From a virus (Duplodnaviria; Heunggongvirae; Uroviricota; Caudoviricetes), in IMG/VR virus record IMGVR_UViG_3300035659_000001: DNA of 64,000 bases; one strand, 5' to 3'. Below are positions 26,038-31,261 of the stretch, piece after piece. How positions within the stretch are numbered: position 1 is the stretch's first letter; every line of letters starts with the position of its first letter. The notes under the pieces are model-generated. The model saw nothing but the letters and a program-made list of their open reading frames with translations. It was not told the DNA's origin and made no database searches. Position numbers and translations under genes: made by a program.

Positions 26038-26204
26038 TGACAATTTTAATTATTATTACGAGCTTATGTCTAGTATGTATTATAATTTGCTTGTTACTTG
26101 TTATCAATTTAAATAAATTAGTAGTTCAAGTTTGCGAAAATAATACTAAATTGTATGAAGCTATTAGCGACGTGATAGATTTAATTGATGGTTCGGAGAA
26201 TTAA
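26037..26204 (+). CDS. 55-aa membrane-anchored protein (not in the ORF track)
   Basis: MTILIIITSLCLVCIIICLLLVINL...; TAATG overlaps with both neighbours. Confidence 0.65.
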   Translation: MTILIIITSLCLVCIIICLLLVINLNKLVVQVCENNTKLYEAISDVIDLIDGSEN

Positions 26205-27844
26205 TGAAAAAATATGATGAAAATTCGATTCAAGTTCTAGATGAACGATCTCATGTAAGATTAAGACCTGCAATGTATATTGGTGACACTGGTATTTTTG
26301 GATTGCATCATTTAGTATATGAAGTTGTTGACAATAGTATTGATGAAATTACAAATGGCTATGGTGATAAAATCACATGTATTATTCACAAAGATGGATT
26401 TGTTACTATTGAAGATAATGGTCGAGGAATACCGGTTGGAACACATTCACAAACTGGAAAAGCTGCAGCTGAGACTGTCTTAACATCATTACATTCTGGT
26501 GGCAAATTTGATTCTATAAGTTATAAAACATCATCAGGTTTACACGGAATAGGTGTGTCTGCTGTTAATTTTTTATCAGAACAATTAGATTTGACAATTT
26601 ATAAAGAGGGTTATACTTGGCGTCAAACATATAAAAAAGGCATAACAGCTACAGAATTTTCAAAAGGTGATGAAACTGACAAAACTGGTACTATTGTTAA
26701 GTTTAAGCCTGATCATTTAATATTTCAAACTGTTGAGTTTCAATATAAAATATTATATAATAGATTAAAAGAACTAGCTTATTTGAACAAGGGTGTAAGA
26801 ATAAATTTAATTGATGAAAAGACTTCGGAACAAATTGAATTTTATTCAGACGGCGGAATAAAAGCTTTTGTTGATGATTTGAATAAAGACAAAGAAGTTT
26901 TATGTACTGGAATTTATTTCAATGATACAGTTACAGTTAAAAATCAAGTTAGTAATCAACAATATGATGTTATTATTGAAGCTGCCTTTCAATATAATAA
27001 GACATACACTGACGTAATTTATTCTTTTGCAAATAATGTAAATACTCGTGACGGTGGGACTCATTTATCTGGATTTAAGTCTGCATTATTGGATGCAATT
27101 GTAAAATATGCAGAAAAGAAAAAACTATTTAAAGGTTTAGATATTAGACCCACGCCAAGAGATATATTAGAAGGTTTGACTGCTATAATTTCAATTAAAT
27201 TACCGAATCCAGAATTTGAAGGTCAAACAAAATCTACATTGGGTAATCCAGAAATAAAAGAAATTGTTTATGATTTTGTTTTAGAGTCAATAACTAAATT
27301 ATTTGATAATGACGATGGTCTCGCGTTAACAATTGCTGAAAAAATATCACAAGCATGCATTGCTCGTGAAGAAGCTAGAAAAGCAAGAGAAACTGTTAGA
27401 AGAAAAAACATATTATCATCCTTGTCATTGCCCGGAAAATTAGCAGATTGTTCAAGTAAAAATGCTGATATTTGTGAGCTTTTTGTGGTTGAGGGTGACT
27501 GCTTTAAAGCAGATACATTAGTATATACTGCTGATGGATTAAAAAAAATAGTTGATATTAAAAAAGGTGACATGATTTATACACACATGCACAGATATAG
27601 ACCAGCAATGGAGAGAAAGCCTAAAATTAAAAGAAAGAAATGTAGGATAACTATTCAAGGAAAAACATTTGTTTGTTCACAAGATCATCTTTGGGGAGTA
27701 TTAAGAGCAAATAGTAATGTATGTGAATGGGTTCCTGCCCGTGAGTTAAAGACAACAGATTTATTGATTAAGACTGTATTGCCCGGTGATGAATATTGCA
27801 AAGTTGTTGACATTTTAGATTTTATTAAAGGTAGGAGAAGTTAA
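26204..27844 (+). CDS. gyrB: DNA gyrase subunit B, N-terminal fragment (GHKL ATPase + transducer) fused to split-intein N half
   Basis: RPAMYIG, EVVDNSIDE, DNGRGIP, LHSGGKF, GLHGIGVS, FEGQTK, LPGKLADC, VEGD, then CFKADT intein block A. Confidence 0.95.
   Translation: MKKYDENSIQVLDERSHVRLRPAMYIGDTGIFGLHHLVYEVVDNSIDEITNGYGDKITCIIHKDGFVTIEDNGRGIPVGTHSQTGKAAAETVLTSLHSGGKFDSISYKTSSGLHGIGVSAVNFLSEQLDLTIYKEGYTWRQTYKKGITATEFSKGDETDKTGTIVKFKPDHLIFQTVEFQYKILYNRLKELAYLNKGVRINLIDEKTSEQIEFYSDGGIKAFVDDLNKDKEVLCTGIYFNDTVTVKNQVSNQQYDVIIEAAFQYNKTYTDVIYSFANNVNTRDGGTHLSGFKSALLDAIVKYAEKKKLFKGLDIRPTPRDILEGLTAIISIKLPNPEFEGQTKSTLGNPEIKEIVYDFVLESITKLFDNDDGLALTIAEKISQACIAREEARKARETVRRKNILSSLSLPGKLADCSSKNADICELFVVEGDCFKADTLVYTADGLKKIVDIKKGDMIYTHMHRYRPAMERKPKIKRKKCRITIQGKTFVCSQDHLWGVLRANSNVCEWVPARELKTTDLLIKTVLPGDEYCKVVDILDFIKGRRS
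27500..27841 (+). other. split intein, N-terminal half (IntN, 114 aa)
   Basis: Cys1 block A CFKADTLVYTADGLKKIVDIKKGD; block B CSQDHLW; EWVPARELKTTDLL; then stop. Confidence 0.9.
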
Positions 27845-27981
27845 TGAACATCTTAGCTATAAACTATACTTATTGTCATCCTGAAAAAATTGAGTTGTTT
27901 GAAGATGATGAACAACTTCATGATATTGATGTTGAAGAAGATCATTCTTTTTTAATTGAAGGTGGCTTTGTTGTTCATAAT
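27844..27981 (+). other. split intein, C-terminal half (IntC, 46 aa)
   Basis: Block F LHDIDVEEDHSF, block G FVVHN followed by +1 Ser of SAGGSAK. Confidence 0.9.
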
Positions 27982-28611
27982 TCTGCAGGTGGTTCTGCTA
28001 AGATGGGACGTAATAGAAATTTTCAAGCAATATTGCCGTTAAAAGGCAAAGTTTTGAATGTTGAAAAATGCGAGTTAGTAAAGATATTAGATAATGAAGA
28101 GATAAAGTCATTGATTGCAGCGATCGGATATGACATTAAGACAGCTGATATGTCAAGACTTAGATATGGTAAAATTATTTTGTCTTGCGATGCAGATGTT
28201 GATGGTTCTCATATAGTTTCTTTATTATTAACGTTATTTTATAGGTTTATGAAACCATTATTAATGAATGGCAATGTATATATAGCACAACCGCCATTGT
28301 ATAAAGTGAAATATGGTAATAATGATTTTTATTTGAATGATGATGAAGCTTTAGCTGCTTGGAAAAAGAAAACTAAAAATCCTGAAAAAGCAATTATTAC
28401 AAGATTTAAAGGTTTGGGTGAGATGAATCCAGAGCAATTAGGTGATACTACAATGAATCCTGCGACAAGAAGATTGGCAAAGGTTGTTGTGTCAGATGAC
28501 GTTGAAACTGATAGAATATTTACAATATTAATGGGTTCTGACATTGATCAACGACGCGAATATATAATACAAAACGCATTGATTGTTAATGAATCAGAGT
28601 TGGATGCTTAA
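27844..28611 (+). CDS. gyrB: split-intein C half fused to DNA gyrase subunit B C-terminal (TOPRIM) fragment
   Basis: SAGGSAK.GR, PLKGKVLNVEK, DADVDGSHI, RFKGLGEMNPEQL; own AGGAG RBS at 27833-27837. Confidence 0.95.
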   Translation: MNILAINYTYCHPEKIELFEDDEQLHDIDVEEDHSFLIEGGFVVHNSAGGSAKMGRNRNFQAILPLKGKVLNVEKCELVKILDNEEIKSLIAAIGYDIKTADMSRLRYGKIILSCDADVDGSHIVSLLLTLFYRFMKPLLMNGNVYIAQPPLYKVKYGNNDFYLNDDEALAAWKKKTKNPEKAIITRFKGLGEMNPEQLGDTTMNPATRRLAKVVVSDDVETDRIFTILMGSDIDQRREYIIQNALIVNESELDA

Positions 28612-28621
28612 AGGAGATTGA

Positions 28622-31261
28622 ATGTTTGACGAAATCGAAAATGATGATATTGAAGAAAAAGTTGATATAAGTGATGAGATGGGTCAATTTGATGTTAAAG
28701 CTCATGAAATTTTGCCAAAGTTATATTTATCTTATGCTTTAAGTGTTATTAAAGATAGATCTTTACCTGATATTCGTGATGGTTTAAAACCCGTTGCTAG
28801 ACGTATTCTTTATAGTATGAATGAAATGGGTCTTAAACATAATAAACCCACAAGAAAATCTGCAAGAATTGTTGGCGATGTAATGGGCAGACTGCACCCA
28901 CATTCGGATGGAAGTATTTATGGTGCAGCAGTTAGAATTGCTCAACCTTTTGCTACAAGATATCCATTAATCATAGGTCAAGGCAATTTCGGATCTTTAG
29001 AGGATCCGCCAGCAGCTATGCGTTATACTGAAATGAAATTGTCTCATATAGCTGAAGAAGTTTTGGCTGACCTTGATAAAGAAACAGTCGATATGATGCC
29101 AAATTTTGATGGCACAATTGTTGAACCTAAAGTATTACCAACAAAATTACCAATTTTTTTATTAAATGGATCGATCGGTATAGCTGTAGGTATGGCTACA
29201 AATGCAGCACCTCATAATTTGACTGAAATAATAAATGCATTGCTTGTGTTTGTTGAGAATGAAGATATATCATTACCTGAATTAATGATGCATATTAAAG
29301 GGCCTGATTTTCCTTCAGGCGCTTATATGTTTAACACAAATATTCAACAAATTTATGAAACTGGTAGAGGTTCAGTTACTCTTAGAGCAAAAGCTGAAAT
29401 TTTTGATAATAATAAAAAGCAATGTATTATAATATCTGAATTGCCGTATCAAGTAGACAAATCAAAGCTAATTGCTAAAATAGCGCAATTGTATCAAGAA
29501 AAGAAATATGAAGGTATTGATGGTATTGTTGATATAAGAGATGAGTCTGACAAAACTGGCACTCGAGTTATTATTGAATTGCGAAAGGGTGTAAAAGCCA
29601 AAACTGTTTTAAATACATTGTATAGAAGAACAGAGTTGCAAACTAAGTATTCAATATTAATGAGAGCACTAGTTAACAATATACCTCAATTGGTATCGTT
29701 AAAAGATGTATTTTGGCATTTTATTGATCATAGAAAAAACGTAATTATTAGAAGGACTGAGTATGATTTACGAAATGCTCAAAAGAAAGCTCATATTTTG
29801 CAAGGATTTTTAATTGCATTTGATAATATTGAAGCATTGATTAATGATGTGAAGTCTTCATCGTCAAATGAAATTACATATCTTAGATTAAGAAAGTATA
29901 GCTTATCAGATGAGCAAATAAAAGCAATATTAGAATTAAGAATTCAAAAATTGGCACAATTTGAGAGAAGTGAGATTGTCAATGAATATACTGAATTACA
30001 GCTTAAGATTGAACAATTGCAAAAAATTCTTAGCTCTGAAGAAAACGTACTACAAGTCATAAAGGATGAATTGCAAGAGATTAAAGATAAATATAGTGAT
30101 TCTAGAAAAACAAAACTGATTAATGTCTCTGAGGATCAAGATAACATTGAGATAAAACAGATTGAAGAAATTCAAGATGATGATGTTATTGTTACTGTAA
30201 CTCGAAATGGTTTAGTTAAACGAACGCCGATAACAGAATACAGAATTCAAAATGTCAAAGGAAGAGGGTTAATAGGCGTTGATGTCAAATATGGCGATTA
30301 TGTAGAAAGTATGTTTCAATTATCTACTAGAGATGCAACGATGGTCTTTACAAACAAAGGCAATTGCTACAAAATGAATGTGTACGATATACCATCATTG
30401 GGTAGAACTGCTGCTGGTAGTTCAATATTGAACATACTTAATATGAATGAAGATGAGAAAGTTATTAGAGTTATTTTAATGCCGACTGATTTGACAAATA
30501 AGTCATTTTTATTAGTATCAAGAAAAGGGCAAATTAAGAAAGTTGATGTTGATAGATTAAAAAGACCAAGATCAACTGGCACTAGAATATTTGGTTTGAG
30601 TGAGACTGACGAGTTAGTTGACGTAGTTTTGATTGATAAGCCAAATGTTCATATTTTACTTGTTACTAGATGCGGTATGGCAATAAGATTTGAAGAAAGT
30701 GCAATAAGGTCATCCGGTAAAAACAGTTCAGGCGTTCGTGCTATTAAATTAGTGGATGATAATTGCATTATTTCTGTGAATATATTTGAAAAAGATAAAG
30801 ATTGTGAACAGCATATAATGATGGTAACCGAAAAGGGTTATTCTAAAAAGTCAGTATTAAGTAGATTTAGAATGCAAAGACGCGGAGGCAAAGGCATAAT
30901 ATGCATGGAAGTCAGCGACTTAACTGGTAAGATTGTGTCAGCTGGAATAATAAAAGATGAAAAGGAACAATGTATTGTTATTACTGAAATGGGAATTTTG
31001 ATAAGATTACGATCGTCTCAAATTAGATTATTAGGTCGAAGAACAAGAGGAAGTAGAATTCAAAATTTGCAAGAAGGTGATAAAGTCGCAGCAGTTGCTT
31101 TTCTTGGTGTTGTTTCAGAAGATGATGAAAAATTATTAGTCAATGTTGAAGATGCTAAAACTGATGATAGTGAAGTAATTGATGATGTTGATGACGATAG
31201 TGATGTAGTTGATAATGAACCCATTGATGAAGAAGAAACTGAGGTTGAAGATGAAGTATGA
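28622..31261 (+). CDS. gyrA: DNA gyrase subunit A
   Basis: DGLKPVARR, HPHSD, AAMRYTE (catalytic Tyr), beta-pinwheel CTD with QNVKGRG and QRRGGKG, acidic tail. Confidence 0.95.
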   Translation: MFDEIENDDIEEKVDISDEMGQFDVKAHEILPKLYLSYALSVIKDRSLPDIRDGLKPVARRILYSMNEMGLKHNKPTRKSARIVGDVMGRLHPHSDGSIYGAAVRIAQPFATRYPLIIGQGNFGSLEDPPAAMRYTEMKLSHIAEEVLADLDKETVDMMPNFDGTIVEPKVLPTKLPIFLLNGSIGIAVGMATNAAPHNLTEIINALLVFVENEDISLPELMMHIKGPDFPSGAYMFNTNIQQIYETGRGSVTLRAKAEIFDNNKKQCIIISELPYQVDKSKLIAKIAQLYQEKKYEGIDGIVDIRDESDKTGTRVIIELRKGVKAKTVLNTLYRRTELQTKYSILMRALVNNIPQLVSLKDVFWHFIDHRKNVIIRRTEYDLRNAQKKAHILQGFLIAFDNIEALINDVKSSSSNEITYLRLRKYSLSDEQIKAILELRIQKLAQFERSEIVNEYTELQLKIEQLQKILSSEENVLQVIKDELQEIKDKYSDSRKTKLINVSEDQDNIEIKQIEEIQDDDVIVTVTRNGLVKRTPITEYRIQNVKGRGLIGVDVKYGDYVESMFQLSTRDATMVFTNKGNCYKMNVYDIPSLGRTAAGSSILNILNMNEDEKVIRVILMPTDLTNKSFLLVSRKGQIKKVDVDRLKRPRSTGTRIFGLSETDELVDVVLIDKPNVHILLVTRCGMAIRFEESAIRSSGKNSSGVRAIKLVDDNCIISVNIFEKDKDCEQHIMMVTEKGYSKKSVLSRFRMQRRGGKGIICMEVSDLTGKIVSAGIIKDEKEQCIVITEMGILIRLRSSQIRLLGRRTRGSRIQNLQEGDKVAAVAFLGVVSEDDEKLLVNVEDAKTDDSEVIDDVDDDSDVVDNEPIDEEETEVEDEV

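Follow-up and report, generated by a model that had tools for sequence, protein, structure and literature searches.

Fractured genes with split inteins have been described for gp41-1, gp41-7, gp41-8, IMPDH-1, NrdJ-1, NrdA-2, DnaE, ligase and terminase (Dassa et al. 2009, PMC2677866), and that work already set out the gene layout together with its hairpin, its Vsr-like nuclease and, in gp41-7, the state that has no nuclease; gyrase was not among its hosts (PMC2677866). The gyrB locus considered here lies in a 64,000-nucleotide stretch of the virus record IMGVR_UViG_3300035659_000001 (hereafter the window), which carries terminase, portal, head protease and tail genes and is that of a very large tailed phage from sediment, a phage origin being what a first-pass annotation made from the letters alone had assumed. 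Judging from its sequence and that of its relatives, the locus very probably contains a naturally split class-1 intein in a fractured gene minus its homing endonuclease, whose two half-proteins would be joined by trans-splicing to give GyrB. It adds a further case to a layout already known, one that a series of evolutionary states documents unusually well, and does not amount to a new kind of system.

Like the genes described in 2009, this one encodes a phage DNA enzyme in two genes that are on the same strand, in the original order and at the same locus, with the N- and C-terminal parts of the intein (IntN and IntC) divided at the endonuclease site. As for gp41-7, the window is without a nuclease and, as for gp41-1 and gp41-8, IntN is positively and IntC negatively charged (PMC2677866); in relatives of the locus the likeness extends to a free-standing Vsr-like nuclease, a hairpin upstream of it, and an overlap with the start of IntC. 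The differences are the GyrB host, an IntN of 114 rather than 88-105 amino acids (aa), the absence from the window of hairpin and spacer, where there is only a 1-nt overlap, and the fact that a single site is known in empty and contiguous form as well as with the nuclease intact, decayed or lost.

Other systems resemble the locus in part. In the MGS5 phage, the open reading frame (ORF) of the topoisomerase II large subunit is split by a Hint-VSR-HintC insert (10.1101/2022.08.31.505936), so that there, too, intein halves flanking a Vsr nuclease break up a GyrB-homologous phage protein, but the protein is a T4-like gp39 rather than a GyrB with a GyrA partner, and the preprint mentions it in one sentence that gives neither its site nor whether the nuclease gene stands free. 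In T4 39/mobA/60 a homing endonuclease breaks the topoisomerase II large subunit inside TOPRIM and parts the metal ligands, and both there and in Aeh1 nrdA/mobE, as here, the nuclease is lost or decays while the split stays; those systems, however, have no intein, act non-covalently via added tails and involve an HNH nuclease; gene 60 also involves ribosomal bypass. Contiguous GyrB inteins of the Ssp GyrB type, of which 33 have been counted in bacteria (PMC4760082), share with the present one the class-1 type, Ser+1 and the same TOPRIM loop, but they splice in cis, and the split Ssp GyrB inteins of the laboratory are artificial (PMC2794532). A contiguous GyrB intein allele four residues downstream, where the first-pass annotation had placed the Ssp GyrB intein, does exist and is seen in L054. 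Its further statement that no split GyrB intein had been described stands in the sense that our literature search, which covered subscription journals poorly, turned up no account of a true GyrB with a natural split intein, nor of one at this site, but in view of the MGS5 topoisomerase the novelty was overstated.

Layout and predicted product of the split gyrB

The features of the locus are these, in window coordinates:

26204..27844, plus strand: ORF1, 546 aa, a precursor of ~61.5 kDa in which the GyrB N-extein is fused to IntN
26204..27499, plus strand: N-extein, 432 aa, with the GHKL ATPase, the transducer and the first TOPRIM strand (Pfam HATPase_c, DNA_gyraseB)
27491-27493, plus strand: codon of the catalytic Glu430 of the N-extein, assigned by motif position
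27500..27841, plus strand: IntN, 114 aa, with Cys1 at 27500-27502 and block B Ser60..His63 at 27677-27688; net charge +11
27833..27837, plus strand: Shine-Dalgarno AGGAG of ORF2, within the final codons of ORF1 and 6 nt before the ATG
27842..27846, plus strand: TAATG stop/start overlap, the site where relatives have an endonuclease gene or remnant
27844..28611, plus strand: ORF2, 255 aa, IntC fused to the C-extein
27844..27981, plus strand: IntC, 46 aa, with Asp27 at 27922-27924, His34 at 27943-27945, His45 and Asn46; net charge -11
27982..28611, plus strand: C-extein, 209 aa, with Ser+1, the remaining TOPRIM and the GyrB C-terminus; metal-binding DxD at 502/504 (spliced numbering)
28622..31261, plus strand: gyrA, 879 aa, uninterrupted, with a beta-pinwheel C-terminal domain (Pfam DNA_topoisoIV and six DNA_gyraseA_C repeats)

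The break falls in the TOPRIM motif EGD|SA, two residues from the catalytic Glu; a TAG at 27832-27834 closes the frame of ORF2 upstream, and the two ORFs share a single nucleotide. In ORF1 a weak Hint_2 / intein_Nterm match begins at C433, directly after the last N-extein residue, and ORF2 matches intein_Cterm (TIGR01443) at 21.3 bits, against a cut-off of 15.6, followed by Toprim and gyraseB_C. When residue 432 is joined in silico to Ser47 of ORF2, the result is a protein of 641 aa with all GHKL and TOPRIM motifs in order, collinear with the intein-free GyrB of L107 and 77% identical to it, and removal of the intein restores the host protein exactly. This exact restoration, together with Cys1, block B, the block F Asp and His, the His-Asn pair and Ser+1, marks a class-1 intein, and the separate ORFs, each with its own stop, ribosome-binding site (RBS) and start and seen beyond one assembly, mark a split one. 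ORFs, profiles and in-silico splicing thus bear out what the first-pass annotation had proposed at its core: a natural split intein with these coordinates, motifs, RBS, TAG closure and product. For both halves gyrB models outscore parE (522 vs 414 and 275 vs 246 bits), and both half-proteins are also encoded on a 261,940-bp contig. A promoter scan of the locus gave results at chance level, and a type IA topoisomerase gene comes after gyrA.

In the mechanism proposed here, both precursors would be made from one mRNA by coupled translation, and the basic IntN and acidic IntC would bind and, as modelled, fold into one HINT domain. Cys1 would then undergo an N-S shift, Ser+1 would take the N-extein, Asn46 would cyclise and an O-N shift would complete the 641-aa GyrB, these being the steps of standard class-1 chemistry, for which the residues are intact. 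Only after splicing would Glu430 and the DxD ligands stand in one intact TOPRIM fold, in an enzyme whose partner would be the adjacent phage GyrA. TOPRIM chemistry needs the Glu and the DxD together and, because in the precursors they lie on separate chains, gyrase activity should need splicing. As for what that activity is, the GyrA motif at residue 543 (window:30240-30280), the usual position of the GyrA box, is degenerate, and a consensus copy is found at 752, in a later blade; the same position is degenerate in L003 and L107. Given this degenerate position, it may be that the phage enzyme relaxes or decatenates rather than supercoils, more like topoisomerase IV.

By its residues the intein appears capable of splicing. 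Cys1 and block B Ser60, Asp62 and His63 are invariant among 20 IntN homologues, as are Asp27, His34, His45, Asn46 and Ser+1 among 16 IntC homologues. The best PDB match of the IntN profile is the gp41-1 intein structure (E 4e-10), with block B aligned, and IntC aligns with blocks F and G of Npu DnaE IntC; relative to the contiguous intein of P0065, IntN spans residues 1-105 and IntC 120-155, so that the break is at the usual endonuclease site. IntC has a charge of -7 to -12 across the 15 homologues counted. On ratios of non-synonymous to synonymous differences (pN/pS) of 0.19-0.46 for IntN and 0.09-0.37 for IntC, which are uncorrected and come from synonymous sites that are partly saturated, both halves are under purifying selection comparable to that on the exteins. 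In P0033, P0035, P0038 and P0065 the conserved Asp of EGD, which normally precedes the intein, is replaced by Ser, Ala, Glu or Asn.

It might be asked whether splicing is needed at all, if the halves dock via their intein fragments and work unspliced, as Aeh1 NrdA or T4 gp39/gp60 do through their tails. The T4 topoisomerase, split inside TOPRIM by mobA, does work non-covalently (10.1101/2022.08.31.505936; PMC2988022), and the complex model predicts that the present halves bind. A mere docking module, however, would not need an invariant catalytic set, and Cys1, the block B His, the block F Asp and His, the His-Asn and Ser+1 are all invariant across 16-20 relatives; moreover, the insertion point is just two residues away from the catalytic Glu. 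We consider docking without splicing to be improbable. The same intactness bears on the idea of a decaying pseudogene in a phage that relies on host gyrase, to which we attach almost no credence: although relatives do show decay of the cassette's nuclease, exteins and intein halves are intact and under purifying selection, the adjacent gyrA is intact, and there is no second gyrB in the window.

Two points weigh against trans-splicing to an enzyme that the phage requires. The model of the IntN-IntC complex has an interaction score from predicted aligned errors (ipSAE) of 0.65, the best control scoring 0.00, but it shows a resemblance to split inteins of solved structure, not binding, and the predictor may simply have learned those structures; contact agreement between runs was at least 87% and the partner predicted local distance difference test (pLDDT) score at least 72, and the ipSAE mark is attained by 58 of 80 complexes with solved structures and by 2 of 110 pairs that are mismatched. 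In addition, the host's own gyrase could render the phage enzyme dispensable.

Reality of the break

A Logan contig of depth 89, an assembled contig possibly from the source sample, covers the whole stretch without differences, and a JGI contig, possibly from the same sample, carries the identical junction. Three other sequencing runs had no coverage of the junction and so bear on it neither way. Beyond these, IntC begins 15 stand-alone proteins that are 71-100% identical over 60 aa, with a sixteenth from a separate search, and IntN ends 20 GyrB N-halves of 524-560 aa; as the N-half search accepted 300-956 aa, a contiguous form of ~800 aa would have been caught. The first-pass annotation had suggested looking for other gyrB pairs split at EGD|SA, and these 20 N-halves and 16 C-halves, which come from many samples, are the outcome. 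In an exhaustive profile search the five closest clusters all terminate in IntN, and a search for long fused IntC forms gave only P0036, itself split at the EGD|SA site. The split is conserved in relatives, which is an independent, comparative proof, and the gyrB split is therefore not an assembly artefact.

The same evidence speaks to whether the locus encodes a single contiguous mini-intein protein, the break being either an indel introduced in assembly or one that ribosomes cross by programmed -1 frameshifting. The frames do differ by -1 with a one-base overlap, and a distant relative has a contiguous allele at the same site. Against this, the spacers between the halves run from -1 to ~1200 nt and occupy all three frames, those of 17 to ~1200 nt splitting relatives in differing frames; a sister phage from two other datasets has a separate stop and start of its own; no slippery heptamer was found at the junction, nor any stable RNA structure there in the window (z +0.9); and the depth-89 contig is without a variant. 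Both the indel and the frameshift were rejected on the strength of the conserved split, the varied spacer frames and the missing slippery site, and a contiguous protein seems to us very unlikely.

The endonuclease gene and the probable movement of the cassette

As the first-pass annotation had stated, the window has no endonuclease gene between the halves, and tblastn detects no remnant of one there either; what it missed is that relatives keep the nuclease or its remains. In L002, L003/L004, L005 and L092, a free-standing gene for 340-380 aa stands between the halves, with products that are 43-54% identical mutually. The model of the C-terminal domain (pLDDT 87) matches E. coli Vsr by Foldseek (E 7e-4), with Z 12.2 and a root mean square deviation (rmsd) of 3.7 over 131 aligned residues for Vsr (1cw0) and Z 9.5, rmsd 2.6 and 97 aligned for I-Bth0305I (3r3p); it also matches DUF559 clusters in the Atlas, and the Vsr motif residues Asp52, Trp69-His70 and Asp95 are invariant among the four nucleases. 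Vsr and I-Bth0305I are its best structural matches. The fold of this domain is shared with I-Bth0305I and the Vsr-like (DUF559) homing endonucleases (PMC3239194), but identity is 10-14%, the N-terminal region is another one, and the gene is not in the window. Pfam and PDB sequence searches gave the nuclease no name, and a search of PHROGs returned only phrog_22677, of unknown function.

In L002 and L005 a strong hairpin covers the RBS of the nuclease (z -3.9 and -4.2), and the nuclease genes of L003 and L005 run at their 3' ends into the start of IntC. At L003:4898-4980 and L006:5817-5900 the nuclease frame, after stop codons, continues the IntN frame, and the RBS is followed by ATC with no ATG, which suggests a weak non-AUG start. 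L004, L005 and L094 are phage-like contigs inside NCBI metagenome-assembled genomes, one of them labelled Nitrosarchaeum sp., and are probably mis-binned.

Frame-broken remnants of the nuclease are found in the 356-bp spacer of L090 (E 1e-22 or better), in the 219-bp spacer of L087 (E 5e-30) and in L109 (E 6e-7), and one with weak scores in the 183-bp spacer of L006. At the sister locus L088/L089, whose GyrB is 86% identical, the spacer has shrunk to 17 bp; because the AGGAG of ORF2 is homologous to the RBS within this spacer in L088, it is probably all that is left of the sequence flanking the nuclease cassette. Further along the range of states, the gyrB genes of the close relatives L107 (77% identical) and L108 (74%; from a phage of 330 kb) are uninterrupted and the gene order around them is the same, whereas a contiguous mini-intein of 155 aa, closely similar in its C-part, occupies the site in P0065. 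Because a Vsr-fold nuclease gene, whole or as a remnant, separates the halves in relatives, the absence of an endonuclease from the window is, on this comparison, a secondary loss, and the window is a 'fractured gene' in the nuclease-less state, step III of the gene-breaking model. The origin that relatives point to is one in which a Vsr-fold nuclease gene entered an EGD|S mini-intein at the position where inteins usually carry their endonuclease, bringing a stop, an RBS and a start with it; the cassette would then have spread among gyrB lineages and the nuclease decayed repeatedly, with a clean deletion in the window's lineage.

Such an origin leaves little need for the post-translational switch that the first-pass annotation had raised as a possibility; in such a switch trans-splicing would be conditional on redox, metal or temperature and would control the phage gyrase. 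It is true that the break parts the catalytic Glu from the DxD ligands, which would make activity splicing-dependent, and that several lineages stay split after nuclease loss. But invasion by a selfish element explains the split and is hard to reverse, so that the split should persist even if it brings no advantage, since nothing short of precise excision gives back a working gene; the stop-start overlap and the RBS of ORF2 point to co-production of translationally coupled halves; the close relatives L107 and L108 do without the intein; and no sensor feature was found. A switch is accordingly a proposal that we would now give only a slight chance.

When L003 is compared with L002/L005/L092, identity is 40-45% for the exteins but 65-72% for the inteins and 46-54% for the nucleases. 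GyrB normally evolves more slowly than inteins and homing nucleases do, and because here the latter are more alike than the exteins, the IntN-nuclease-IntC cassette probably moved between gyrB lineages in the split state. In the trees empty alleles are nested among occupied ones, the inteins of the extein sister pair P0024 and P0032 fall in different groups, and monophyly of the intein-bearing GyrBs is rejected by the approximately unbiased (AU) test (p-AU 5e-7, with P0065 omitted for its long branch). We are inclined, though not strongly, to the view that the already split intein and the free-standing Vsr-fold nuclease form one homing cassette that could turn the intact gyrB of distant phages (~40% identical) into two-gene trans-splicing loci in a single step.

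Precise intein losses, by recombination with empty alleles, could give part of the tree and AU pattern; the two empty alleles may go back to a single event (p-AU 0.12); and the contiguous allele of P0065, which is single and distant (~40% identical), could be ancestral or re-fused. The intein tree, mostly unresolved, is too weak for a donor or an order of transfers to be claimed. When viral contigs were scanned with ORF2 or with the intein profiles, all inteins retrieved were distant ones, a metagenome scan returned mostly ordinary gyrB, and the EGD|SA split allele had no match in GTDB genome contigs or cultured phages, all of these being weak negatives.

Related inteins and implications

Other breaks occur in phage type II topoisomerases. 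At L005:2913-7729 gyrB is present as three genes with two split inteins, one at the EGD|SA site and one just before the DxD; the IntN of the latter carries an HNH domain, and the same intein is contiguous in P0036 (L109). At L005:7957-12295 gyrA is split by an intein adjoining the catalytic Tyr and also contains a contiguous LAGLIDADG intein and, as gyrB and gyrA are both split, the gyrase of L005 is encoded by five genes. P0051, P0054, P0084, P0112, P0123, P0145, P0045 and P0038 are GyrB or topoisomerase II pieces that end in IntN, one of them four residues downstream, five after the DxD and two, divergent, at EGD|SA; some of the after-DxD pieces apparently begin with an IntC-like stretch, which would make them middle pieces. 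With split N-halves found at two further GyrB/topoisomerase II sites, split inteins in these phage proteins are, by sequence comparison, recurrent. Contiguous inteins occur in the GyrB ATPase domain at L002:1836-4796 and in GyrA at L090:4790-8539 and on the P0018 contig.

Elsewhere in the window, a contiguous intein with an HNH endonuclease lies within a host protein (window:6460-8343), an RRXRR + HNH protein, IscB-like, is encoded between radical SAM and uracil-DNA glycosylase genes (window:23318-24604) that are adjacent in L003 and L090, and window:57724-61989 encodes a collagen-repeat, tail-fibre-like protein of 1421 aa.

With this locus the proteins that host natural split inteins come to include a true gyrase B, and the split accounts for the annotation of such genes as 'ATP-binding' and 'toprim' proteins with no apparent relation to each other. 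The family, related to the fast gp41-1, is a source of new and possibly orthogonal Cys1/Ser+1 split inteins for protein ligation. As nearly every state of gene breaking is seen at one insertion site, the 2009 model and the homing of split inteins become directly testable. If the homing cassette is real, split inteins at this site would have spread as mobile elements rather than through a single origin followed by inheritance, and the phage gyrB in the window, its nuclease deleted, would be the end point of that process.

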